NCBI GenBank assembly: GCA_963700145.1 | Contig: OY969474.1 | Span: 1,248,001 to 1,312,000, forward strand | Source: an uncultured Acidobacteriota bacterium | Lineage (GTDB): Bacteria > Acidobacteriota > Thermoanaerobaculia > Multivoradales > UBA5704 | Reading direction: 5' to 3' | Length of the DNA stretch: 64,000 nucleotides | Part shown: positions 13,523 to 43,138 of the stretch, in pieces | Layout of the letters: each line of letters begins with the position of its first letter | Position numbering within the stretch: the stretch's first letter is position 1 | The notes under the pieces: generated by a model | What the model was told of the DNA's origin: nothing | What the model saw: the letters and a program-made list of their open reading frames with translations, nothing else | The model's database searches: none | Made by a program: the position numbers and the translations under genes

Positions 13523-14110
13523 ATGGACCTCAGCTCCGAGCAGCAGCGCGCCCTGGACTACCTGCGCCGCAAGGGGACGGAGGCGCCGGTCGAGCGGCTG
13601 CGCGAGCACGTGGCGGGAACGTTCGCGGAGCTGGAGGCGCTGCTCGACGGCGTGCCGCCGGCGCTGCGGGCGGTCCCCCCCGGGCCGGGGCGCTGGTCGG
13701 TGCAGGAGGTCGTCGATCACCTGGTCGAGAGCCACCGGCCGGCGCTCGTGCAGCTCCGGTCGCTGGTCGCCGGCGAGCGCCCCGCGGGCGGGCCGGTGCC
13801 GGCGAGCCTCCAATCCGCGGCGCCGCACGAGCGCCCGTGGGACGACCTGGTCGCCGAGTTGCGCCAGATCCACCGCGGCTTCCGCAAGGTCCTCGCCGAC
13901 GCCGGCGACGACGTCTCGCTGGCGGTCACCGGCCCGATCGTCATGGTGGTCAAGGTGGCGGACGCCTCCGGCGCCCTCACGCCGGAGGCGTCCGAGCACG
14001 AGCTGGACTGGAAGGCCTTCGCCCAGGTCTTCCGCGTCCACACCCTCCAGCACCGCGACCAGATCCGCGCGACCCTTGCCGATCTCGTCCAGGCGCCCGC
14101 ACCCTCATAG
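13523..14110 (+). CDS. DinB-family protein
   Basis: Start at MDLSSEQ; GRWSVQEVVDHL and HTLQHRDQI. Confidence 0.75.
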   Translation: MDLSSEQQRALDYLRRKGTEAPVERLREHVAGTFAELEALLDGVPPALRAVPPGPGRWSVQEVVDHLVESHRPALVQLRSLVAGERPAGGPVPASLQSAAPHERPWDDLVAELRQIHRGFRKVLADAGDDVSLAVTGPIVMVVKVADASGALTPEASEHELDWKAFAQVFRVHTLQHRDQIRATLADLVQAPAPS

Positions 14111-14126
14111 CTTCATGGAGAAGCCC

Positions 14127-14948
<822 letters not shown>

Positions 14949-14972
14949 TCCCGGCCGGCGCGCCGGCCGCCC

Positions 14973-15155
14973 CTACCTCACGGCCGCGCCGCGGCCGACC
15001 ACGAACCCCGCGATGCCGAGCACGATCGCGATCACGCCCAGGACCCGGGTGAGCGTGAGACCGCAGGCGATGCAGACGATGCCGTCGGGCGTGAACATCA
15101 GAGCGCCGACGATGATGAGGAAAGCGAACGCCAGGACGCGGACGAGATTCGGCAT
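14973..15155 (-). CDS. Small two-TM protein with a CxxC loop
   Basis: Purine-rich SD-like sequence upstream; TM-PDGIVCIACG-TM. Confidence 0.65.
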   Translation of the reverse strand: MPNLVRVLAFAFLIIVGALMFTPDGIVCIACGLTLTRVLGVIAIVLGIAGFVVGRGAAVR

Positions 15156-15273
15156 CTCCCTGCCTCCTCGAGCAGCCGCTGATGGACGGCAACCCCGCAG
15201 TGGGCGGCGAGACCAGTGAGGGGAAACGCTGTCGGGTGAGCCGCGCGGATCCTAGGTCAGCGCGCGGAAGGCG

Positions 15274-15723
15274 TCAACCGGGTGGGAGCGATTCGAGCTG
15301 CTCGATGTCTGCGAGGTCTTGGAGCCTGCCGGTGGTCCGTTTGTTCTGGATTAGGTGGCGGCGGGACAAGACGGCGGCAGGCTGGCCGGCGAACGTGGTC
15401 TCGACACGCTCCGCCCAAGCCTCCGCGAACTCGACGCCGTCGATTGAGGTCAGGACGTCGATCCGCACGGGGGGCAGTCCAACCTGGAAGATCAGACCGG
15501 GCTGCGTCAGGTCGTGCGCGACCAAGTCCTGTAGGGGGGCGCCGAAAGAGCCGAGCGCATCCAGCACCTTCGAAGCATTGCCGGGCGATGGGTTCACCCA
15601 GACGTCAAGGTCCTTCGTGGCGCGGACGTGTCCATGAGCGGCGAGCGCATGCGCTCCCACGACCAGATACTCAACGCCCGCGGCGTTGAACTCGGCTAAC
15701 AGATCTCTGAAGTCGGGGTTCAT
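15274..15723 (-). CDS. Nucleotidyltransferase-fold protein (DUF6036-like)
   Basis: YLVVGAHA..HG..RATKDLD and NKR..GR.QDLAD. Confidence 0.85.
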   Translation of the reverse strand: MNPDFRDLLAEFNAAGVEYLVVGAHALAAHGHVRATKDLDVWVNPSPGNASKVLDALGSFGAPLQDLVAHDLTQPGLIFQVGLPPVRIDVLTSIDGVEFAEAWAERVETTFAGQPAAVLSRRHLIQNKRTTGRLQDLADIEQLESLPPG

Positions 15724-15934
15724 CGCCGCCGTCGCTGTGCCACCCCATGCACGCTTTCGTCAACGTCCAGACACCTTCGATGCGCTCTGCCGGCGCGAGC
15801 ACCAGCCAGTCGCGGTCCCGCGGGACAGGCTCTCCTGCTCGGATCACACGGGAGGTGATCAACCGCTGCCGCTGACTTCGGGTACTCACAGTCGCTATTC
15901 TATCACCGTGTACCGTGTACGAGGTGACATGCAT
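15671..15934 (-). CDS. Small partner of the nucleotidyltransferase (true start may be internal)
   Basis: DW..L.P.ERI...W.L...EPRLQR motif; overlaps the NTase gene. Confidence 0.55.
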   Translation of the reverse strand: MHVTSYTVHGDRIATVSTRSQRQRLITSRVIRAGEPVPRDRDWLVLAPAERIEGVWTLTKACMGWHSDGGDEPRLQRSVSRVQRRGR

Positions 15935-15963
15935 ACGAGGCCAATATATTTACTGTGAGTAGC

Positions 15964-17424
15964 TCAAGACTTTTCGGCGGCCAACCGACCTTCCAGCCAG
16001 ATGACTTCGCGTCGCCGACGGCCGTAGCCGCATGCCTCAATCAGATCGCGCGCGCGGGTAAGATGCCTGCTAGCCGTCCTCTTGTCCCCTTGTTGGAGGC
16101 GGGTGCGGGTCCACTCAAGTTGAGCATCGGCTTCAAAAAGGCGCATCTGGCCCCGCTCGGCGATCTCTCCGACCTCGCGGAGATCGCCGGCAGCAGCGGC
16201 CAGATCACCTTGGAGGCGGCGGAGCGCGGCACGCGCAAGGAGGCCCCGGGGAAGCTCATCTTGCTGACCAGCTTGCCGAAGTCCCTCGATCGCTCGGTTT
16301 AGGTACTCGTCGGCCAGGTAGAGCTCCGCCAAGTCGACAGTTAGACCCAGGCCCAGATAGGCACGGCCTAACGTGAGGTGGTAAAGAGCGATATCAAGGA
16401 GCCAGTTCATCGACATGATCTGGCCCAACGTTCGCTGTGCCCGATCGCGGGCCTCTTCACAGGCCTTTTGGTATCGCGCGCGCGACTGATCGTTGCTATT
16501 TATATCGTCTAGCCCTGAACCGTCCTCCGGCTCAGAGCTTCCCAAGAGCAAATCGCAATAGCGAAAGCCCTGCACTGAATGAAGAAGGAGATCCCCAGGC
16601 TGTTGTTGCGAGTGCAGAACCTCCGCCTCCCGGAAGAGAGACCCACTTTCCTTTAGCTTGCCCTCTTGGTGAGCAACATCGGCCAGAACCGTCCGGCTGA
16701 CCACCCTTGCGAACAAATCTCCTGAGCGATCAGCCAGCTCGACACTTTGCCTTCCAGCCTCAACAGCTTCTGCGATCTGGCCGAAGGTCAAGAGTAGCTC
16801 GCACAAATTGCTCGCAGCGCGTGCCGCTTCCGGCCAGCGTGCTTCCTCAATCCGGAGCGCTAGTCCCGCCCGAAGCGGCTGGCCGGCTTCCTGCAGTCTG
16901 CCAAGGGCGCGCAGGATGAATCCAGCCTCGTTTAGTAAGAAGGCCTGAGCCGACGGGGACAGTCGGGGAGAGAGTTGGTTCCAGGGCCGTTCGAAGAAAG
17001 CGGCGAGTGCTGCCAGCTCGACACCAAACGCACCGAGCGTCCTCAGACTAAAACCTTCATTGCCGCGCCGAATTCGCCGTAGGAAAATGTTCTCCAGTAC
17101 CTCTTGCTCTCGGCCAGCCTTGCATCCATGAACGACCGCCGCATAAAGTGGCAGAAGCAGCTCAAGCGTGTCTGGATACTCTTGTGAGGTCTGCCGGTAG
17201 TGCTCGTAAAGTCGCTCATGTCCCAGACGCCAAGCCTCTGGGGCCTCCTCTCGAAGCCGTTTCCCGAAGTGCTCCCGTACGAGAGGATGGGTATCGATCG
17301 GAGCGTTCACGTCACCGGACGCCTCGATCGTTACCAGATGCGCACTTCGAAGCCGCGACAAAGCTTTGCGCCAATCTTGTTCGTCGTTCAAGCCGATCCC
17401 ATCAGTGAGCCCCGAGATGGAAGG
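15964..17424 (-). pseudogene. 3' part of the STAND ATPase-TPR gene (TPR region), cut by IS256
   Basis: DTHPLVREHF winged-helix motif followed by TPR-like helices; in frame with 18884-20073 after removing the IS. Confidence 0.85.
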
Positions 17425-18883
17425 GGGGATGCCCCGTTCCCTGTTGAAAGCCGAAAGAGGGAAAGCGGCTCGGTTGATCATGCCACGGCCTTGGTGTTCG
17501 TCGGTTCCTCGATCGCCGCGAGCGCGAGCTCGAGAGCCCCGAGGTGCCGATGTCCCTTGACACGCCGGAAGCCAGCCTCCGCGTCACACAGCGCCAGGGC
17601 GACCCAGCGCAGCACCATGTCGCCGCCGCGCCAGCGCTTGACGTTGCGCGTCGTCGTACGGATCGAGCCGATCGTGTTCTCGATCGCGTTGGTCGAGGCG
17701 AGCAACCGGCGCAGAGCGTCGGGCAGCTTCAGCCGCAAGGCGGTGAGGGTCTCGTCGAGGCCCTCGCGCAGGCTGCCCGCGGCGCCCGCGTGGCCTGCGT
17801 GCTCGAGCCAGCGGGCAAGCTGCTCGAGGCGACGCTTGGCGAGGTCGAAGCGAGCGCTCTGGTAGGCCTCGACCATCAGGCGGTCGACCCGGGCTTGGAG
17901 CTGCTTGGGCAGGTGGTCGCGGACGTTGCGGCGCTTGTGGAGCTGGCAGCGCTGGACGTGGGTTGCGTCCCCGAAGACGGCGCGCACGGCCTTGCGCAGC
18001 CCCTTGCCGCCGTCGAGCACCGCCAAGAAGCGCGGCGGCATCGCGAGGCCTCGCTCCAACAGCTCCTGGAGCAGGCCGGTACAGAGCGCCGCGTTCTCCG
18101 TCGCGCCTTCACGCAGGCCGAGCACCCGCTTGGTCCCGTCGCGCGCGATGCCGAGTGCCACCACCAGGGTGTGGCCGGCCACCTCCAGCCCGTCGATCAT
18201 CAGGATCAGGGGCTGGAAGTCCGACAGGTCTCGGCGCAGCCACGCGCCCAGCAGACGACGCGTCCCCGCCACCAGCCGGCGCTGGACCGCACTCTTGCTC
18301 GTCGCGCGCTCCGGCACCGACTCTGCGAGCGGCTCCAAGCTCCGACCGTAGCGGCGCTGCGAGACGCCGACCAGCGCCTGCTCGATCACCCGCTCCGTGA
18401 AGGGATCTTCGTCCTGAAAGGCGCGCACCGAAGGCAAGCTCATCTCGCCACCGTCGCGTCGCCGGACGCGCGGTCGCGGCAGCGCCACCTGGCGGCCACC
18501 CAGCACGAACTCGCTCGCCGTCGAGCCCCAGCGGTACGCCTCGCGGGTCGGATTGCGCCGACGCTTCGGACCGACGACGGCCTCGACCTCGTCCGCGAGC
18601 TGCCGCCCCAGGGCCTCGACGCCCGCGGCGTGAAACAGCTCCAGCAGCCCCTGGCGGCTGGCCTCGATGCCCTCGACCATCGGCCGCAGCAGCGCTTGTA
18701 GCCCGTGGCTGATGCGCGCCGCACGGCCCCCTTGCCACACCACCCGCCTTTCTGCTCTCGTCTTCATCACGGCTCCTTGGCCCCCTGGCGGGGCCGGTTA
18801 TTCGACCAACCCGATTCTCGATCAGGTGGGCCGAGGAGCCGCCTTCACCTCATTGCTCTTTCAACAGCGGGAGGGACAACCCC
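17425..18883 (-). mobile_element. IS256-family insertion sequence, 1459 bp
   Basis: Imperfect 36-bp terminal IRs (GGGGATGCCCCGTTCCCTGTTGAAAG.. / GGGGTTGTCCCTCCCGCTGTTGAAAG..); 8-bp TSD ATGGAAGG at 17417-17424 and 18884-18891. Confidence 0.95.
17478..18770 (-). CDS. IS256-family transposase
   Basis: LMIDG, VLDGGKGL, VQRCQLHK.RN, STNAIE (Mutator-type DDE with CxxH). Confidence 0.95.
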   Translation of the reverse strand: MMKTRAERRVVWQGGRAARISHGLQALLRPMVEGIEASRQGLLELFHAAGVEALGRQLADEVEAVVGPKRRRNPTREAYRWGSTASEFVLGGRQVALPRPRVRRRDGGEMSLPSVRAFQDEDPFTERVIEQALVGVSQRRYGRSLEPLAESVPERATSKSAVQRRLVAGTRRLLGAWLRRDLSDFQPLILMIDGLEVAGHTLVVALGIARDGTKRVLGLREGATENAALCTGLLQELLERGLAMPPRFLAVLDGGKGLRKAVRAVFGDATHVQRCQLHKRRNVRDHLPKQLQARVDRLMVEAYQSARFDLAKRRLEQLARWLEHAGHAGAAGSLREGLDETLTALRLKLPDALRRLLASTNAIENTIGSIRTTTRNVKRWRGGDMVLRWVALALCDAEAGFRRVKGHRHLGALELALAAIEEPTNTKAVA

Positions 18884-20073
18884 ATGGAAGGTGGCATCCG
18901 CAGGGCAGTGAGCGCCGCTGCCTCAGCCGCGCGATCGAATAGTCCTAGGAGATACAGCACCTCGATCTCTGAGCCCGGCCCGAGCCACATCTCGTATGAG
19001 GTCAATACGCTGTGTGCGTGGTCTTCTCCCTCAATCTCTTCATCCAGAAGTGAAACCTCATGCCGCCGGCGCACGTCACCGCCGCAAACATCCCGCAGAT
19101 AGCTTCCTAGGAGCGTTAGTGCCAAGGCGTGACCACCAAACTCCTTCGCCGTCTGTCTCAGTTCCACCTCTGTACCTATAACCCCGAGGCGCTGTAGCAG
19201 TTCAGCCCCGGCGCTTTCCGGTAGCGCCTCCAGGGTAATTTGTACCACTCCCGCTCTTCCGAGGATATCGCTCACCGAAAGCCGACTCGTGATCAGGCAC
19301 AGGCCGGAATTGGAGGCTGCAAGGTCACGCACCAGTGCCGCGATGGCAGGGTCCTTAAGTCGCCCAGTCTGGACACCAGGCGGGTGCTGGAGGGGCTCAA
19401 GGCCATCGAGGATTAGCAGAGTTCGCCTCTCGCGCACAAGCTCTGCGAGCCTCGCGCCCTTTTCCCAGGGCGAGGGGCTCGGGGTACTCTCGTTCCCCAA
19501 CCAACCCAAGGCGTAATCGACGAACGCGTCTCCTGATGCACCGGCCGTATCCATTCCCTGGCTATAGAAGGACCACCCTAGGATACGCTCGGCATCCCGC
19601 CAGCCTTCGGCACCGAGGCGATCGAGCCAATGATTAACCAGCGCTGACTTCCCCATACCGCCGACCGCAACCAGAACCGCGACATTCACACCCGGGTCGT
19701 TCCATGCCGTATCTAAATGATTGAGCTCTTCCTCTCGGTCGACAAAGGCAACTCCCGATACTGGCAATCTGGCAATCGATACACGAGGCTCGTACCGTTG
19801 GGGTTGTCCCTCCAGGGGCAAAATAAAAGGATTGTGATACTCATCTGAGGCCCTAAAGAGCCAATCGCCGATCTCGCGGGCCGTCCATTGAAGATCTTCA
19901 CGGTCGGCCAGGTCGCTCACATAGCGACCAGCCGCTATGACTTGAGCGAACAAAGTCCTCAATTTTGCAGTTGAGTCCTCGCCAGTCGCATTATCCTCCG
20001 ACGAGAATTTGATCTGCTGCCATAAGCCCTGTAGTTCCCTTGCCGAAAGATGGGCCATTCCTATTTCATCCAT
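18884..20073 (-). pseudogene. 5' part of the STAND (NB-ARC/NACHT-like) ATPase-TPR gene
   Basis: FVDREEEL, Walker A VGGMGKS, Walker B LLILDGLE, LITSR, GGHALAL.LLG. Confidence 0.85.
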
Positions 20074-21052
20074 GCTCGTCGAAGAACTTCTCAAGCATAC
20101 CGTCAGCGATCACTAAAGCTTGGTGATACCAACTGACCATCCATTCGATCAGCAAGACAGCGCTCGCAGTGTAGGCATCGAAACGTTGAGCCGCTAGAGC
20201 ATCCCGCATTACATCCAGGCAAATCCAAGTACCTAGAAGGAAGTCAAGAAACTCCAGAGACCCAGTTGTTCTCATGACAGCTTCTAACTCGTCAACAATC
20301 CTTCGAAGATCGCTGTCCGATGTGCTAAGAATTCTTCTTGCCGAGTCTCGAGTAGCCACATTTCGGTGCCTTTTGTAGATCTGGAAGGCTTCCTCAAGGA
20401 CTCTTGCGCGCGAGAACATCTGCTCTGCGAGTTTGTGTACGGCCTTCCAACTTCGACCATCTCGTCTGGTCCGTTCAACCTCTGCCGCCGAGATCCCAGG
20501 AACCCTAGATGAAAATACGCTCTGGGCCCCCCTGGAATCGGTAATACGAACCTCGGATCCTCGAAACAAAATGGAGAAAGATCGATGGTCAGGTAGATAG
20601 TCCGCGAAATATCTATTGATAATCGTTGGGTAGTTCCAAAGCTCCTCTAGAAGGTCTTCCCAAGCCCAGACTGAGACCGGGAAGGACCCGCGCTCCACTT
20701 GGATGCCGCTAATCTCACGCACAAACTCTTGGACGGAGACGCTGCGTGGCGCTGTGGTAGCTACCGTTAGCTTTCTGAGCCCTGGTTGGAAACGCAGAGC
20801 AGCATGGACCTCGTCTTCAACCTCTTGCCTATCGAGCTGTTTTCCTTTGCTCTTGGCTTTGCATTGCACGCCTTCCCATTGAGGCCCTCGGTCAGGCTGG
20901 CCAAAAATGTCGACACCCCTCTGAGCCTCGCCCTGCCGACCGTGTTTTTGTGCACCTGGATCGCTCCACATCCGTCTAAACAGGTCGCAGCAGAGATCCT
21001 CGAAATCCTGCCAGCGATCCGGCGGAGGCAGAGCGACCTTTAGCGGGGGCAT
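20066..21052 (-). CDS. Mrr-like PD-(D/E)xK endonuclease domain plus C-terminal helical domain
   Basis: PPPDRWQDFEDLCCDL..GRQGEAQRGVDI...GVQCK; stop overlaps the start of the STAND gene (ATGGATGA). Confidence 0.8.
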   Translation of the reverse strand: MPPLKVALPPPDRWQDFEDLCCDLFRRMWSDPGAQKHGRQGEAQRGVDIFGQPDRGPQWEGVQCKAKSKGKQLDRQEVEDEVHAALRFQPGLRKLTVATTAPRSVSVQEFVREISGIQVERGSFPVSVWAWEDLLEELWNYPTIINRYFADYLPDHRSFSILFRGSEVRITDSRGAQSVFSSRVPGISAAEVERTRRDGRSWKAVHKLAEQMFSRARVLEEAFQIYKRHRNVATRDSARRILSTSDSDLRRIVDELEAVMRTTGSLEFLDFLLGTWICLDVMRDALAAQRFDAYTASAVLLIEWMVSWYHQALVIADGMLEKFFDEHG

Positions 21053-21158
21053 AGGCTCGTAGTTCGCAGATCTCGGTATCGCTACTGAGAACCTGATTCT
21101 CCGTCGGGGAAAGGCTCTGATGCAACTTAGGACTTGAGCGCGCCTCTTCGACGCTTCG

Positions 21159-22472
21159 CTAGGTGGGCTCAACTGGGAAAGAGGCACCATCCGCCAGAAT
21201 CATTTTCAGCATCGCGATGTTGTCGCGGTGGCCGGTCAGCTTGGCGGTGACCTTGCCGCGGATCGGATAGCCCAGGAGATAGAAGTCGCCGAGGATGTCG
21301 AGGATCTTGTGGCGGGCGAACTCGTCGGGGAAGCGGAGCTCGGTGTTGACGATCTCGTCCTCGCCGACCAGGATGAAGTTGTCGAGCCGCCCGCCGGAGC
21401 CCAGCCCCAGCTCGTTCATCATCTTGAGGTCCTTCAGAAAGCCGAAGGTGCGGGCCGGCGCGATCTCCTCCTGGTAGCGGGCGAAGTCGGTGAGCGTGAA
21501 GTCGTAGCGCTGCTCCCCGACCGGCGGCGGGTAGCGCAGCTCGTAGGAGACCGCGAAGCCGTCGTAGGGCTCGAGCACCAAGCTCTTGCCGCCCGCGCCG
21601 CCGACCTCGTAGCGCCGGTCGATCACGATCTCCTGCCGCGGCGCGTCCTGGTCGACCACGCCGACCTCGTCGAGCACGCGGCAGAACTCCAGCGCCGAGC
21701 CGTCGAGGACCGGCAGCTCGCCGTGCACCTTGACCAGCAGGTTTCCCACCCCGGCGGCGTGGAGGGCGGAGAGGAAGTGCTCCACCGTGCGCACGCTCTC
21801 GCCGTCGGTCGAGAGCGTCGTGGCGTAGTCGGTGTCGGCGACGGCGCGGACGTGCGCCGGGATCTCCGCCCCGGCCGGCAGGGTCACGAAGTGGACGCCG
21901 GTGTCGGGCGGCAGCGGCTGGATGACCATGCCGGTGCGCCCGCCGGAGTGGAGGCCCAGGCCGTAGATCACCGTGCTGTGGCGAATGGTGCGCTGCGGCC
22001 GGTCGCTGGTGCGCAGCAGCGCCAGCGGCGGCGGCGGCTCGAGCTGCCGCTCCTCGGCGCGCGACGGCCCGGCCGGCGCCGGCAGCGCCGCCTCGCCGCC
22101 CAGGCTGCGCTTCATCGCCAGCGCGCCGGCCACGGCGTCCACGGCGCGCCGGTACGAGAGCGGCTTCTCGAGATAGTCGAAGGCGCCCATCTTGATCGCC
22201 TTGACCGCGGTCGCCGTGGTGCCGTGTCCCGACATCATGACGACCGCCGCCGCCGGGTCGGACTCGCGCAGCGCCTGCAGGGTCTCGAGCCCGTCGCGGT
22301 CGGCCAGCCAGACGTCGAGGAAGACCACGTCCGGCCGCGCCTCGGCGTAGAGCCGGAGCGCGTCGGCGCCGCTGCGCGTGGCGAGGGTGCGGTACCCCTC
22401 GTCGGCGAGGATCCCCGACAGGGTGGTCAGGATCCCCGGCTCGTCGTCGACGATCAGCACCAGGTCGCTCAT
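21159..22472 (-). CDS. lpxC: Response-regulator receiver domain fused to UDP-3-O-acyl-GlcNAc deacetylase
   Basis: REC: VDDE, FLDVWL, MSGHG, EKP. LpxC: QRTI..G.GLHSG, TVEH..SAL, ELPVLDGSA, ARTFGF, RFPDEFARHKILD. Confidence 0.92.
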   Translation of the reverse strand: MSDLVLIVDDEPGILTTLSGILADEGYRTLATRSGADALRLYAEARPDVVFLDVWLADRDGLETLQALRESDPAAAVVMMSGHGTTATAVKAIKMGAFDYLEKPLSYRRAVDAVAGALAMKRSLGGEAALPAPAGPSRAEERQLEPPPPLALLRTSDRPQRTIRHSTVIYGLGLHSGGRTGMVIQPLPPDTGVHFVTLPAGAEIPAHVRAVADTDYATTLSTDGESVRTVEHFLSALHAAGVGNLLVKVHGELPVLDGSALEFCRVLDEVGVVDQDAPRQEIVIDRRYEVGGAGGKSLVLEPYDGFAVSYELRYPPPVGEQRYDFTLTDFARYQEEIAPARTFGFLKDLKMMNELGLGSGGRLDNFILVGEDEIVNTELRFPDEFARHKILDILGDFYLLGYPIRGKVTAKLTGHRDNIAMLKMILADGASFPVEPT

Positions 22473-39792: not shown

Positions 39793-39925
39793 TTTCGGAC
39801 CGCCATGGCGGACGACCTCGATCACCGTCTCCATGAGGCCATTGCGAAAGGCGCAAGGAGACCAGCAGGGCTCGCCGGCCTCCCGAGCCCTCCCCTACCT
39901 CAGGCCAGCTGCTAGCGCCAGAGCG

Positions 39926-40186
39926 TTAGCACCGGCTGATGCCGCAGGTCACCGGCGGAATGCCCCAGCGGGTCTTGCAACAGGCCTTCCACCGGCCGAA
40001 ATTCGGTATGTTGAAGCACTTGTTACCGAAGAACGGCAGCGTGAAACACTTCCGCCCGCCGCCGACCTGCACGCATGGGGTGCACAGACTTAGCTGGGGC
40101 GCCACACCGGGCTCGCTCCAGGCGGCCGCCCCCGCGAAGGAGCTCATCGACCGGTCCGCGGGCTGAGATTGCGTTGGCATGCGCAT
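39926..40186 (-). CDS. Putative RiPP precursor 1: leader + GVAPQ + cationic 8-Cys core
   Basis: GAAGGAG SD; 86 aa; leader homologous to the neighbouring peptide. Confidence 0.8.
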   Translation of the reverse strand: MRMPTQSQPADRSMSSFAGAAAWSEPGVAPQLSLCTPCVQVGGGRKCFTLPFFGNKCFNIPNFGRWKACCKTRWGIPPVTCGISRC

Positions 40187-40273
40187 GACTGTGTTCTCCT
40201 TCCTCGTGTGAGGTAGTCCTTTTGGCGCTCGGATTACCGCAGCCGCGATGGGCCTGCGGCCGGTCGCGCCGCG

Positions 40274-40477
40274 TCACTCTCCCGACTCGTCGTACTCTCC
40301 CGACTCGTCGTACTCTCCCGACTCGTCGTACTCTCCCGACTGGCCCCCTTCTTCGCCGTCGTCGTGCTCGTCCTCCGCGCCGTGCGGGAGGACGCCGACC
40401 TGATCGGGGTTCAGGCCGCGCCATGGGCGACGACGGGCGTCGCGGGCCGCTGGCTCCGACTGGGTTGGCGGACGCAT
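40274..40477 (-). CDS. Putative RiPP precursor 2: leader + GVLPH + acidic SGEYDE-repeat core
   Basis: AAAGGAG SD before MRPPTQSEPAAR; 67 aa. Confidence 0.75.
   Translation of the reverse strand: MRPPTQSEPAARDARRRPWRGLNPDQVGVLPHGAEDEHDDGEEGGQSGEYDESGEYDESGEYDESGE
40277..40341. repeat. Exact 18-bp tandem repeat (about 3.6 copies) encoding SGEYDE
   Basis: CTCTCCCGACTCGTCGTA x3 plus a partial copy. Confidence 0.95.
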
Positions 40478-40543
40478 CGTGCCTTCTCCTTTCGGGGTTA
40501 ACCCCGTCCGCACGCCGGGCGGGGCGGAATCAACAACATCGGC

Positions 40544-42634
40544 TCAACGCAAGGCCCACGAGCGGACCGGGCCGACGAGCACGGGAACGACGTCGCTCAC
40601 ATCCACGGTGAAGCGGTACGCCGTCCGGGCGTGGCCGAGCGCGTCCTCGGGATCGAAGAAGATCAAGCGCACGTCCCAGCAGTCGCTGTCAGGACGGCAG
40701 ATGGGGCTGGGCTCAACCCCGATTTCGTCGAGCTGCAGCTTTCTCCTTGCCGCGTTCTCGAAGACTTGCGCAAGATTGAACGCGTTGGTCGCGGCGAAGT
40801 TCAGCGCCCGTTCTTGGGGCGTCTGACCCGTGTTGCGCACCTCGAAGTAGATGCGCTCGAGGAAATCGCGAATCCCTTGGGACTTCGCATCGAATTCCTT
40901 CCTTTGGGCTTCGGTCGCGGGCTTCTTGCCGGCGACTAACGCCACCAGCACGGCGGTCGCCCAGTTGAACATCCCGCGCAACTCGGGGACCAGGACCGGA
41001 ACCGGCTGGCCGGTCAGCAGGGTCACGTTCCCGTCCAGCACCCCCGGGACGCTGACGCGCTCGGCCTTCCCGTCGATCTGATCGGCAAAGAACTCCAGCA
41101 ACCGACCGTACGTCTCGCGCGCGAACGCGCCCTGAGGGCGCAGAGCGTAGATGGGCGTGGCGTCGTGGTTGAGCGTCCACAGGATCGCCGCGGCGAAGTG
41201 GTGATTGCCCTCCCTGCTCACGAACTCGAGCAGGTCGCGCGGGTTGGTGGGGAACTTGCCCTCGTCCATCTCGGCATTGATCGCGTCGAGCCGCGCCTGC
41301 GAGCCGAAGTCGTAGCCGAGTTCGGCAAGAGCGTAGACGAGCCCGCCGCCCTGCTGGCATGCGCAGTCCGACGGGGACAATCCGCGGGACGCGCGCAACG
41401 CGGGTCGCCGACCGGGCATCGCCTGCGCCTGGAGCGCGGAGGGCTCGGTGTTCTCGTCTTCGCTCTCGTCTTCTTCCGGGGCCGAGGCCGTGCCCGGCGC
41501 CGGCGTTGGAGTGGCGCAACCACACGAACAAGACGGGCTCACTCCCTCCGCCGGCCCGGCGTCTACGAGCGCGCCTCTCGGCAGCGGAGATGCAGCGGTG
41601 TTGACCACTTCGCTCATGTCCATCGCTCCTTTCACGTAGAGGTCGAATGCTCGAACTGCATCGACACGCCCGGCGAGGAGCCGCTGGCAGTCGCGCCGAT
41701 CCTCCAGGTCACATGGCGAGACCGAGCGCAGCAGCGCATCGCGCAGATCGCGCGTGTCGCGCGGCGTGAGGCGGTTTCTCCGCGCCAGCCGGGCGCTGAG
41801 TAGGAGCCCTGCCAGCCCGGCGACCAGAGGCGCAGCGCACGAAGTCCCGGTCCGACGCTCGTACCCGCCCCCGGGGACGGCGCCGAGCAGCGACTCGCCC
41901 GGCGCGACCACGCCCTGGCGCAGGTACACCCTGCCGAAGTTGCTGGACTCGCTCGGCGCACCGTGAAGCCCGTGCGCGCCCACCGTCAGGACCGTCGGCA
42001 ACGCGGCCGGGAGATGGAGGCAGTCGCACCCGTCGTTGCCGGCGGCGGCAACGACCAAGACCCCTCGTCGCGCGCATAGCTCGACGGCGCGCACGAGGCG
42101 CCGATCGGCCGTGCCTGCGTGCCCGGGCTGCCCGCTGCTGATGTTGATCACGTGCGCCCCGTAGCCGACGGCGGCTTCGACCGCGCGGGCCAGGTCGCTC
42201 TGCGCGCAGGGGCGGATCGCTCCCGGCAAGGCCGGGTGATCGGAGAAGATCGGGATCACGATCCCGCGGCAACGCGGCGCGACACCCTTCAGCGGCCCAG
42301 CTCCGTGCTGCGCGAAGATTAGGCTGGCGACGTGTGTCCCGTGCCCGCAGGAGCCAGTGCCGGCGCAACGGGACCCGCCGCTCGCCCAGGGCATCGTCAG
42401 TCGGGCACCACCCAGCGACGGGTGCGACACATCGACTGGCCCGTCGAGAACTGCGATGCACACGCGTGCATCGCCCAGGGTCTGACGCCACACGTTCTCG
42501 AGGCCCGGGAGCGGGCAGCCTTCCAGCTCGCCTGCGTGAATGCCCTCCCGCGTTCCAGCGCAAGGCCGGGTGTGCAGAGCCGACTCCCATGAACTCGTCG
42601 CTTCCAAAAGGACCACGCCTCGCCAGTTCGACAA
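40544..42634 (-). CDS. PatA/PatG-family cyanobactin-type S8 protease with C-terminal PatG domains
   Basis: LPGL..W..TLGD, IAVLDGPVD, HGTHVAS, AAAGNDG, GTSCAAP; C-terminal VYAL.ELGYDFG, ERALNFAATN, SPICRPDSDCWDV, YRFTVDVSDVVPV..W. Start uncertain. Confidence 0.92.
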   Translation of the reverse strand: MSNWRGVVLLEATSSWESALHTRPCAGTREGIHAGELEGCPLPGLENVWRQTLGDARVCIAVLDGPVDVSHPSLGGARLTMPWASGGSRCAGTGSCGHGTHVASLIFAQHGAGPLKGVAPRCRGIVIPIFSDHPALPGAIRPCAQSDLARAVEAAVGYGAHVINISSGQPGHAGTADRRLVRAVELCARRGVLVVAAAGNDGCDCLHLPAALPTVLTVGAHGLHGAPSESSNFGRVYLRQGVVAPGESLLGAVPGGGYERRTGTSCAAPLVAGLAGLLLSARLARRNRLTPRDTRDLRDALLRSVSPCDLEDRRDCQRLLAGRVDAVRAFDLYVKGAMDMSEVVNTAASPLPRGALVDAGPAEGVSPSCSCGCATPTPAPGTASAPEEDESEDENTEPSALQAQAMPGRRPALRASRGLSPSDCACQQGGGLVYALAELGYDFGSQARLDAINAEMDEGKFPTNPRDLLEFVSREGNHHFAAAILWTLNHDATPIYALRPQGAFARETYGRLLEFFADQIDGKAERVSVPGVLDGNVTLLTGQPVPVLVPELRGMFNWATAVLVALVAGKKPATEAQRKEFDAKSQGIRDFLERIYFEVRNTGQTPQERALNFAATNAFNLAQVFENAARRKLQLDEIGVEPSPICRPDSDCWDVRLIFFDPEDALGHARTAYRFTVDVSDVVPVLVGPVRSWALR

Positions 42635-42740
42635 CCCAAGCTAGGGAACAATGTAGACTCTTCCATAATAGCGTTACACATGATAAGACTGTAGTCAATA
42701 GCTGCTAGATAGATTATTCGACATGACGCTAGGTTTGAAG
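42635..42740 (-). promoter_or_regulatory. AT-rich probable promoter region of the protease/peptide operon
   Basis: Sharp AT enrichment in a GC-rich genome; TTGACT -35-like hexamer on the minus strand; no confident -10. Confidence 0.4.
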
Positions 42741-43138
42741 AGGCAGACGTTGGGCACAGCGCGGGCGATCTCCCCGCCAAGCTCGGCGCCTCGACGAGGC
42801 CGTGCGGAGTTCGAATCCGCGGCGTTGCCGACGCACTCCCGCGAGCGCGCGTTGCTCCTCGAGCGCGCCGCCGTGTGCGCGCGGAGCAGCGCGGCCCGAG
42901 CCGCGGTGACGAACGAGGCCTGGAGCCGTTGCTCGTCCGTCCACGCTCGTCGTGCTGCAGTTAGAGGTGCAGGGACCTAACGCCCACCAGGGGCGCCACT
43001 GTCGCGCCCGGTTATACCGACATCCTCACCACCACCCACGACATCAATGATCGCGGGTTGATCACGGGTAGGGCTTCCGATCCGGATACTGGCGAGCGCC
43101 CTGCGCTCTCGGCAACCCCGAACCCGTAGGCGCGGCGG

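Follow-up and report, generated by a model that had tools for sequence, protein, structure and literature searches.

Three genes lie one behind the other on the reverse strand of a soil acidobacterial genome, within the 64,000 nt stretch of DNA analysed here (in the following called the window). In the direction of transcription these are a PatA-type leader protease gene (40544–42634), a gene for a small acidic precursor (40274–40477) and a gene for a small Cys-rich cationic precursor (39926–40186). They occupy an island of 3.35 kb (39793–43138) whose two neighbours, an ECF sigma-factor gene and a DUF2784 gene, converge on it with their stop codons. The non-coding region upstream of the protease gene (42635–43138, reverse strand, GC 0.64), which includes an AT-rich segment (42640–42740, GC 0.40), presumably carries the promoter; this placement stays presumptive because a scan for promoter and terminator consensus sequences returned no site, hence no sigma-70 match upstream of the protease gene. 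Searching Rfam yielded no match at E ≤ 0.1.

The protease is a member of the PatA/PatG family TIGR03895 (NCBIfam, 599.2 bits at a cut-off of 421.05), covering positions 1–605 of the 606 in the model. It is 687–696 amino acids long, the longer form reading from TTG at 42634. TTG at 42607 is an alternative start because the closest homologue (P0052, 78% identical) begins at residue 10; the 616-amino-acid database copy (P0051) would lack Asp64. A subtilase (S8) catalytic domain (residues 57–304, 41723–42466; PF00082, E 2.8e-29) is joined by a linker to a C-terminal PatG-type domain of unknown function (DUF), consisting of a PatG_D part (residues 433–533, 41036–41338; PF18047, E 2.5e-13) and a PatG_C part (residues 584–693, 40556–40885; PF18065, E 1.3e-39), all on the reverse strand. 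The catalytic triad D64/H98/S265 and the oxyanion residue N200 are invariant across a family alignment of 52 sequences. Among solved structures, 4h6w (276 bits) and 4h6v (262 bits), N-terminal cyanobactin proteases of the PagA/PatA type, come closest; residues 430–695 match the PatG DUF structure 4uvq with 185 bits, and the PatG macrocyclase 4aks scores 133 bits. A kinase domain, described as an insertion in PatG-type macrocyclases (PMC12639078), was not found in the protease by Pfam. Identity to cyanobacterial members is about 46%. A quick tree places the protease in a group of 21 rows (SH-aLRT 99) with all named cyanobacterial rows outside; this tree was midpoint-rooted for drawing only, and the group is not a test of monophyly.

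The Cys-rich precursor of 86 amino acids is preceded by an AAGGAG Shine-Dalgarno sequence (SD). It has 13 homologues of 51–71% identity, all but one exactly 86 amino acids long, and its profile matched 37 clusters among 1.84 billion representatives. Four of these 37 matches are long, repetitive proteins lacking coherent domains (P0019, P0039, P0046 and P0048), and we regard them as spurious. Conservation and the AlphaFold model delimit a leader of residues 1–31 (40094–40186, reverse strand) with a net charge of 0 and the ending G-V-A-P-Q, in which V28, P30 and Q31 are kept in at least 90% of the 37 sequences. The predicted mature core (39929–40093, reverse strand) comprises 55 amino acids with eight Cys, no Asp or Glu and a net charge of +8. 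In all nine loci that were measured, the core has 55 residues, eight Cys and a charge of +6 to +8, and the family terminates on an invariant last Cys. The maximum Kyte-Doolittle mean over 15 residues is 1.13 within the first 60 residues, that is, the protein has no hydrophobic N-terminus or signal peptide.

AlphaFold predicts residues 1–29 to be disordered (pLDDT < 50) and the core to fold into six beta strands (33–35, 39–41, 44–50, 54–60, 64–72 and 79–85; pLDDT 71–81, mean of the model 63.9), a model of moderate confidence only. Foldseek gave no match of the core in the PDB at E ≤ 0.001. Comparison with 48,161 chains by VIA-align reached a best Z of 5.5, below the noise level of the tool, and no fold was assigned; aerolysin-type proteins with their elongated sheets ranked highest, while laterosporulin reached Z 3.2, likewise below noise. 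Eight invariant Cys, including a CxxC motif and a CC pair, in a peptide synthesised in the cytoplasm would also suit an intracellular metal-binding protein of metallothionein- or chalkophore-like type instead of a disulfide-bonded effector. We consider this very improbable: in a second clade CxxC is replaced by CxxxxC and the CC pair is moved by one residue while the count remains eight, which fits paired disulfides better, and the core is strongly positive with conserved Trp, Pro and Gly residues and a predicted beta-sheet.

The acidic reading frame was called by the program from GTG (40274–40513), but its start is the ATG at 40477 because ten syntenic homologues align from there. The resulting precursor has 67 amino acids, with GGAG 8 nt upstream of the start and a GC3 of 0.79. 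Among the ten homologues P4, R12 and G28 are invariant, and M1, Q6, P9 and P31 almost so. By homologue alignment and charge count, the leader (residues 1–32, 40382–40477, reverse strand) carries a net charge of +3 and ends in G-V-L-P-H. It is followed by a polyanionic tail of 35 amino acids with a net charge of −17 (40277–40381, reverse strand), built from three repeats of a Ser/Gly/Glu/Tyr/Asp unit. The tails in eight other measured loci range from 25 to 74 amino acids and from −11 to −24, their sequence varying while the charge is kept. The leaders are strongly basic (+2 to +6) in eight of the nine measured loci and +1 in the remaining one (L029).

Both small proteins begin with the tag M-x-x-P-x-Q-x-x-P-x-x-R, nine of their first 13 residues being identical (BLASTP E 5e-4 in a single comparison). 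This is more than a chance likeness: a six-frame search of the whole 5.46-Mb genome for the strict tag pattern gave four matches, and two of them are these two genes. The leader/core boundary is marked by G-V-x-P-(Q/H), ending at residue 31 in the Cys-rich and 32 in the acidic protein, or G-[VIL]-x-P-[QHS] in the wider set; it is pinned because one clade has its first Cys two residues after the Q, and it coincides with the switch from disordered to folded in the AlphaFold model of the Cys-rich precursor. From these sequence patterns, cleavage would occur after this motif. The published PatA site is G(L/V)E(A/P)S (PMC10885120). The likeness between the two is one of pattern only, and where PatA sites have Ser at P1, the sites of the locus and its relatives would have Gln, His or Leu, which counts against PatA-like cleavage. 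Neither small peptide matches any Pfam or NCBIfam family at E ≤ 1, nor do eight peptides from relatives, and a language-model search for look-alikes scored 0.76–0.78, below its own threshold. The initial annotation had described a PatA/PatG-family S8 protease with an intact D/H/S triad, followed by two small same-strand genes with SDs, homologous N-termini and oppositely charged cores of 55 and 35 amino acids behind a GVxP(Q/H) motif; all of this is borne out, and both small genes have syntenic homologues elsewhere.

Several lines of evidence identify the trio of genes as a horizontally acquired, mobile cassette. In a genome of the same genus (G004), whose sequences flanking the island are 91–95% identical, the ends of the sigma-factor and DUF2784 genes are 15 nt apart and a counterpart of 39793–43138 is absent; the cassette is thus a clean insertion or deletion of 3.35 kb between the two genomes. 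The GC content is 0.68 in the island versus 0.74–0.75 in the flanks, and GC3 is 0.79–0.84 in the island genes versus 0.97 in the flanking genes. The sequence TTCGGACC at the left edge of the island was considered as a repeat core, but its four occurrences in the window compare with 2.2 expected and are attributed to chance. TIGR03895 is patchily distributed, being found in none of four same-genus genomes, in six of 41 relatives (the host genome counted), in 9 of 401 genomes of the class and in 2 of 401 of the phylum. The genes neighbouring the cassette differ in every long related locus.

The locus shares with cyanobactin maturation the PatA architecture of the protease (S8 domain plus PatG_D/PatG_C DUF), the position of the precursor gene next to the protease gene and a presumed site whose pattern resembles that of PatA. 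By gene membership, however, it is not a cyanobactin cluster. It lacks a PatG macrocyclase, heterocyclase and prenyltransferase, the leader tag is unrelated to the PatE models, and the host is an acidobacterium. The cores of 55 and 35 amino acids exceed the 3–20 amino acids given for known cyanobactins (PMC4663559). The tailoring enzymes of a canonical RiPP or cyanobactin pathway (a macrocyclase, heterocyclase, prenyltransferase or others) could be encoded elsewhere in the genome, as unclustered RiPP enzymes are known (PMC8960859) and a B12-radical-SAM gene lies near one related locus (L034), on the opposite strand. Such a split pathway appears highly unlikely. The genome, a single contig estimated as 95% complete, contains one TIGR03895 match above the cut-off, the remaining 11 reaching at most 48.5 bits, and no YcaO. 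The three genes travel together into neighbourhoods that are unrelated to one another, and both precursors stop directly at the last core residue without an AYDG-type C-terminal recognition sequence. Pfam scans detected no transporter or tailoring enzyme among the neighbours in the window (26.7–55.9 kb), nor a tailoring domain, shared tailoring enzyme or exporter among the neighbours in ten related loci.

To follow the association of these genes in other genomes, we compared 29 fetched loci, each encoding a homologue of the Cys-rich peptide. A protease, as S8 and/or PatG-DUF gene, adjoins the Cys-rich gene in 24 of them; in four loci fewer than 500 nt are available upstream of the Cys-rich gene, too short to tell, and one (L025) contains the peptide pair and no protease within 704 nt upstream. 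Of the 29 loci, 26 also encode the acidic partner; none was visible in L024, L026 and L037. Wherever measured (nine of nine loci), a core of +6 to +8 is paired with a tail of −11 to −24, making the pairing of opposite charges near-obligate in the Cys-rich family. In three loci (L010, L022 and L030) the cassette has thioredoxin-fold genes as neighbours. Many relatives have a fourth small gene, which is absent from the host genome. For a small CxGC protein of the relatives, a word-based search found four proteins only, and the host genome gave no convincing homologue (best E 0.011).

The tag extends beyond this peptide family. Eight other acidobacterial PatA-type loci have a same-tag peptide gene beside the protease (five with the strict pattern, two with looser forms and one weak), and their cores are unrelated. 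The strict tag matched six times in the 97,007 nt of these loci, always on the protease strand, compared with about 0.04 matches expected, a figure derived from two background matches in 5.46 Mb. Across 15 peptides with the tag, drawn from nine loci, M1, P4, Q6 and R12 never vary, and the protease type (fused or split) varies together with the tag type. One of the loci (L072) encodes three same-tag proteins with short, Cys-free cores that we read as amphipathic and similar to antimicrobial peptides (AMPs). Co-occurrence of the leader with PatA-like proteases elsewhere, on which the initial annotation had made its proposal depend, is thus found, both in the Cys-rich family and in these further loci.

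None of these eight loci, whose cores are weakly charged, has an acidic gene up to 3 kb away from the protease. This distribution bears on the role of the acidic protein, which might not be a partner of the cationic peptide at all: since its tag and site are of the same kind, it should compete for the protease and could regulate it as a decoy or competitive substrate, or it could be an independent product, for instance a metal- or mineral-binding polyanion. Its basic leader, by which the uncleaved form is internally neutralised, and its variable, low-complexity tails would agree with this. However, the strongly cationic family has it in 26 of its 29 loci and the PatA-type loci with other cores in none of eight, a distribution not expected of a general regulator of the protease, and we regard this explanation as quite unlikely. 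The acidic protein appears to belong obligatorily to the cationic peptide and not to be a second product in its own right.

Taken together, the locus probably represents a self-contained, horizontally moving peptide-maturation cassette, in which the protease frees a cationic effector and a charge-neutralising polyanion. Lacking a signal sequence, the protease presumably resides in the cytoplasm, as PatA does. There it would recognise the short N-terminal tag common to both small proteins and cut about 30 residues in, after G-[VIL]-x-P-[QHS] or within one or two residues of it. The products would be a four-disulfide, all-beta peptide of 55 amino acids and +8, and a polyanion of 35 amino acids and about −17. 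The charges and the co-occurrence suggest that the polyanion serves as a trans-encoded counter-ion or pro-piece, by which the cationic peptide stays harmless or soluble in the producing cell up to its release. As effector, the cationic peptide would most likely be antimicrobial (bacteriocin-like, defensin-like), a reading in line with the AMP-like cores of L072 and with the thioredoxin-fold genes beside the cassette in three loci. We also infer that the two products bind each other, that the disulfides form, that the peptide is exported by some route and that it is biologically active. The suspected tag reader is the PatG-type DUF of the protease, an assignment weakened by the failure of the PatG DUF to bind PatE in vitro (PMC4259220).

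The cassette contains no exporter or membrane immunity gene, and neither a C39-peptidase ABC exporter nor a Sec signal was found among the window neighbours or in the ten related loci. The missing exporter and signal peptide count against the proposed scheme, in which a disulfide-rich peptide would have to reach an oxidising compartment, and they would fit an intracellular module of toxin-antidote or abortive-infection type. There, the cationic peptide would be a toxin with targets in the producing cell itself, such as nucleic acids or membranes, the polyanion would be its antidote, and the protease would arm or disarm the pair by removing the tag; the small mobile island, the patchy distribution of TIGR03895 and the strict basic/acidic pairing would suit such a module as well. 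We judge it unlikely, since a small all-beta core with eight conserved Cys is typically found in extracellular peptides that are stabilised by disulfides, and the same tag precedes diverse Cys-rich and AMP-like cores in related loci without an acidic partner. Furthermore, PADLOC yielded only a generic 'subtilase' match for the protease (E 5e-20) and none for either peptide.

The proposed maturation cassette resembles several known systems in part. Class II bacteriocins are freed from a double-glycine leader by a C39-peptidase ABC exporter and otherwise remain unmodified, some of them, such as laterosporulin, being disulfide-rich. The cassette would likewise combine a dedicated leader protease and disulfides as the only other change with a cationic core, and in both cases the genes are small and mobile, with a patchy distribution; the leader here, however, is not of the double-glycine type and the protease is a soluble S8/PatA-type enzyme instead of a C39-ABC fusion. 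In mammalian alpha-defensin precursors, an anionic pro-piece balances the cationic, disulfide-rich peptide until proteolytic maturation. The polyanion would be functionally analogous in balancing the charge of a cationic Cys-rich peptide, but in the cassette a gene of its own encodes the anion, complete with another copy of the leader and cut site, and there is no relationship in sequence or fold. Nif11/NHLP-type precursors and conotoxin superfamilies combine conserved leaders with hypervariable cores, comparable to the one conserved tag found here on many unrelated cores beside the same type of enzyme, while the tag sequence and the enzyme differ and no modification enzyme is present.

To our knowledge, cyanobactin pathways are the only setting from which PatA-type proteases have been described. 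Those pathways were still held exclusive to cyanobacteria in a 2015 review (PMC4663559). Our literature search found no description of a peptide-maturation module of this type. The data fit the proteolysis-only system, lacking PatE-like leaders and canonical tailoring genes, that the initial annotation had proposed as a possibly undescribed RiPP class; a match to an already characterised family, which it had named as refuting the novelty, was not found in Pfam, NCBIfam or the literature search. 'RiPP' is a generous term if leader removal and disulfides are the sole modifications.

In the soil Acidobacteriota, the PatA-type protease would thus serve a different purpose, freeing long disulfide-rich or linear peptides with no other enzyme. 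If this is true, the tag and site beside a PatA-type gene provide a genome-minable rule for many new peptides with hypervariable cores, and the cassette shows how a cationic peptide is naturally co-produced in charge-neutralised form, which is of interest where toxic peptides are to be made in cells; it is also a tractable system for the role of the conserved cyanobactin DUF. More tentatively, the cassette may be the founding example of a class of host-defence-like peptides not yet described from bacteria, a possible though doubtful reading in which a defensin-sized, four-disulfide cationic peptide is accompanied by a separate polyanionic pro-piece and the PatG-type DUF reads their common leader. 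The long-unexplained cyanobactin DUF would then gain a function, and the PatA family would primarily serve a large and phylum-spanning range of leader-tagged, unmodified peptides, with the cyanobactins as a specialised offshoot.

The protease gene of the cassette is an ORF of 696 aa on the minus strand (window 40544–42634 in the ORF listing), to which Pfam assigns a Peptidase_S8 domain (residues 57–304), a PatG_D domain (433–533) and a PatG_C domain (584–693), the latter two being called the DUF in the following. It scored 599.2 bits against the NCBIfam model TIGR03895 (PatA/PatG cyanobactin maturation protease; cut-off 421). The nearest solved structures are the N-terminal cyanobactin proteases 4h6w (276 bits) and 4h6v (262 bits), the PatG macrocyclase 4aks is far more distant (133 bits), and the last 266 residues of the protease correspond to the PatG DUF 4uvq (185 bits). 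D64, H98, N200 and S265 are invariant in an alignment of 52 sequences. The protein belongs to the PatA/PatG family, and its PatA-type homologs number roughly 900. A quick tree, midpoint-rooted for drawing only, placed it in a 21-row group (SH-aLRT 99) together with the related locus L010 and Bryobacterales rows, with no named cyanobacterial row inside this group. The public call, P0051 (616 aa), begins ~80 codons inside the ORF (window 42394–42634) and would omit the catalytic Asp64; homologs of 691–696 aa favor the long form. Because the alignment with the closest homolog (78% identity) begins at residue 10, the true start is either the TTG at 42634 or the TTG at 42607.

Two small ORFs lie next to the protease gene on the same strand, each behind a GGAG-type ribosome-binding site. 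The acidic ORF is listed with 79 aa (window 40274–40513, minus), but its homologs align from an ATG at 40477, yielding 67 aa; the Cys-rich ORF encodes 86 aa (39926–40186, minus). Their N-termini are identical in 9 of 13 residues, and both contain the motif G-V-x-P-(Q/H), whose last residue is number 31 in the Cys-rich and 32 in the acidic ORF. The Cys-rich core following this motif is 55 aa long, with a net charge of +8, eight Cys and zero acidic residues, while the acidic core comprises 35 aa with a net charge of −17. The initial annotation had described these features, namely a PatA/PatG-family S8 protease with an intact D/H/S triad, two small ORFs preceded by ribosome-binding sites, homologous N-termini, the shared motif and cores of 55 and 35 aa with opposite charge, correctly in every detail. 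It had also named a match to a characterized family as a check on novelty; no Pfam or NCBIfam model covers either peptide.

A word-based search identified 13 homologs of the Cys-rich protein (51–71% identity), 12 of them exactly 86 aa long; the eight Cys and a large part of the core do not vary among the homologs. When searched against 1.84 billion cluster representatives, a 37-sequence profile matched 37 clusters (E ≤ 0.001), of which 22 had E ≤ 1e-10. Four of the 37 matches, long repetitive proteins, were regarded as spurious; the others measure 47–189 aa, mostly 85–104 aa. From these searches, the Cys-rich family is real, small and almost confined to metagenomes and MAGs. AlphaFold2, using the 37-sequence alignment, modeled leader residues 1–29 as disordered (pLDDT below 50) and the core as all-beta, with six strands within residues 33–85 at moderate confidence (pLDDT 71–81). 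The predicted boundary between disorder and order coincides with the G-V-x-P-Q motif. No solved structure resembles the modeled core above noise. As an unlikely rival reading, the Cys-rich product could be a metal-binding protein.

To describe the gene neighborhood, genome and metagenome collections were scanned for Cys-rich homologs, yielding 33 loci, of which 29 were kept after excluding L011, L012, L040 and L041 (matches of 21–29 residues only). With S8 and DUF sequences as queries, tblastn located a protease piece beside the peptide gene in 24 of the 29. Four further loci (L021, L024, L029, L032) have only 51–492 nt upstream, too short to judge, and L025 has an acidic gene but no protease in the 704 nt upstream of the peptide gene. 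An acidic ORF with the same type of leader and site adjoins the Cys-rich gene in 26 of the 29 loci, identified with acidity thresholds that varied slightly and in part by visual inspection; the exceptions, where none was seen, are L024 (51 nt upstream), L026 and L037. The Cys-rich core has 55 aa, eight Cys and a net charge of +6 to +8 in all nine loci measured. In nine loci the acidic tail ranges from 25 to 74 aa and from −11 to −24, keeping its character while its sequence varies. A less probable alternative is that the acidic ORF encodes a decoy or an independent product.

The loci fall into two clades, one with the tag of the window, M-x-x-P-x-Q-x-x-P-x-x-R, and a fused protease, the other with a tag of the type L-P-x-F-x-A-E and a split protease (L030, L034). 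In the latter, a 312-aa S8 gene and a separate 301–304-aa PatG_D+PatG_C gene are found (L030 2399–4570; L034 1–1990). Both clades have eight Cys, but the spacing differs: CxxC in the first corresponds to CxxxxC in the second, and the CC pair is shifted by one residue. Of the 29 loci, 12 carry a fourth small gene with the cassette, as does L051; in L030 and L034 this gene lies between the S8 and DUF genes. Its product of 60–90 aa shares this kind of tag at the N-terminus, then shows a conserved segment G-L-G-D ... C-x-G-C ... R-x-x-x-L-N-R-W, and belongs to no Pfam or NCBIfam family. Examples are L009 6272–6520, L013 3369–3632, L015 1491–1700, L018 921–1118, L019 about 1480–1689, L030 3353–3595, L034 813–1037, L037 2296–2535 and L051 2332–2532; the own genome, window included, lacks the gene. 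Next to the cassette, L010 (6703–7293), L022 (4998–5585) and L030 (5322–6701, minus) carry thioredoxin-fold genes, one of which is fused to a trypsin-like peptidase domain. On the metagenome contig L033, the acidic and Cys-rich genes recur as a partial copy in inverted orientation, and the DUF gene too lies on the opposite strand (104–3, 268–555 and 590–1477, minus, versus 1969–2603, plus), which suggests that the cassette was rearranged or duplicated.

TIGR03895 proteins are sparsely distributed: counting the genome of the window, they occur in 6 of 41 genomes of relatives (0 of 4 within the genus; E ≤ 1e-30), 9 of 401 of the class and 2 of 401 of the phylum (both E ≤ 1e-40). Eight other PatA-type loci had usable flanks (G037, G030, G128, G524, G772, G688, G774, G496); G008 was left out, both its contigs being too short. 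Each of the eight has at least one small tagged ORF adjoining the protease, in G688 one weak candidate only. The strict tag pattern, derived solely from the two ORFs of the window, gave 6 matches in 5 of these loci (97,007 nt; about 0.04 expected), all on the strand of the protease. It missed G037 (the ORF starts with GTG), G774 (no Pro at position 9) and G688. Six-frame translation of the own 5.46-Mb genome gave four matches, two of them the locus itself and two background; no other ORF of that genome bears the tag. M1, P4, Q6 and R12 are invariant among 15 tagged peptides from nine loci. In Acidobacteriota, the tag generally accompanies PatA-type proteases, and the co-occurrence that the initial annotation had proposed as a check is found both beside the Cys-rich gene and in these additional loci. 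The cores are mutually unrelated, with several Cys-rich types and one relative of the family of the window. In G774 (L072 5169–5801, minus), three tandem tagged ORFs downstream of the protease have short, Cys-free cores, which from their sequence are read as amphipathic and resembling linear antimicrobial peptides. No acidic ORF lies within 3 kb of the protease in any of the eight loci, which points to the polyanion being specific to the strongly cationic family.

The cassette is mobile. It lies within a 3.35-kb island (window 39793–43138) that has no counterpart in the same-genus genome G004, where the flanks are 91–95% identical to those of the window and the ends of the sigma-factor and DUF2784 genes are 15 nt apart. 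GC is 0.68 in the island versus 0.74–0.75 in the flanks, and GC3 of the three island genes is 0.79–0.84 versus 0.97 in neighboring genes. Named relatives come from Bryobacterales and other Acidobacteriota MAGs, and flanking genes differ in each of ten related loci annotated by Pfam. We consider it nearly certain that this is a real, conserved and mobile cassette. Elsewhere in the window, positions 14000–22000 (GC 0.60–0.68 versus about 0.75) are probably another acquired island, with a Mutator-family (IS256-type) transposase gene (17478–18770), an Mrr-type restriction endonuclease-domain protein (20066–21190), a TPR protein and ORFs without family. A 437-aa protein (21159–22472, minus) joins a response-regulator receiver domain (5–114) to a full LpxC deacetylase domain (160–426); for an enzyme catalyzing the committed step in lipid A synthesis, such a fusion is unusual.

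The cassette's neighbors in the window are an ECF sigma factor, an Ada/AlkA protein, a DUF2784 protein, an enolase-superfamily enzyme and a two-component pair, with no transporter or peptide-modifying enzyme among them, as the initial annotation had noted for tailoring genes; the ten related loci likewise share none. A canonical RiPP with unlinked enzymes, an unlikely rival, would place these elsewhere, and the own genome has no second TIGR03895 protein and no YcaO. None of the three cassette proteins has a hydrophobic N-terminus, which would fit a further, less probable rival, a toxin-antidote module acting intracellularly.

We somewhat favor a reading in which the protease would recognize the common tag and cut at a PatA-like site, releasing a cationic disulfide-rich peptide and a polyanion that would neutralize the cation until release. 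Leader removal by the protease at or next to the motif is likely, considering the published consensus site of PatA, G(L/V)E(A/P)S (PMC10885120), the conservation of the motif, and the first Cys of the second clade two residues after its Q. The acidic product may be the charge partner of the cationic one, at slightly under even chances, and an antimicrobial effector is a little more tentative still. The DUF is the obvious candidate for reading the tag, since the system retains it also where a separate gene encodes it; in vitro, no binding of PatE by the PatG DUF was observed (PMC4259220), which counts against this role. The split protease of L030 and L034 offers a natural experiment on the role of the DUF.

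Lacking a macrocyclase, a C-terminal signal and a curated precursor family, the locus does not qualify as a cyanobactin cluster; its cores far exceed the 3–20 residues of cyanobactins, and its producer is not a cyanobacterium (PMC4663559). In its proposed mode of working it resembles leader-cleaved unmodified bacteriocins, from which it differs in leader, in protease and in having no exporter. A full-text search of openly available papers found no published description of the module. Leader-peptide maturation by a dedicated protease is a known kind of system, to which this locus adds a specific 55-aa cationic family, a near-obligate polyanionic partner with the specificity of that pairing, and a clean insertion boundary.
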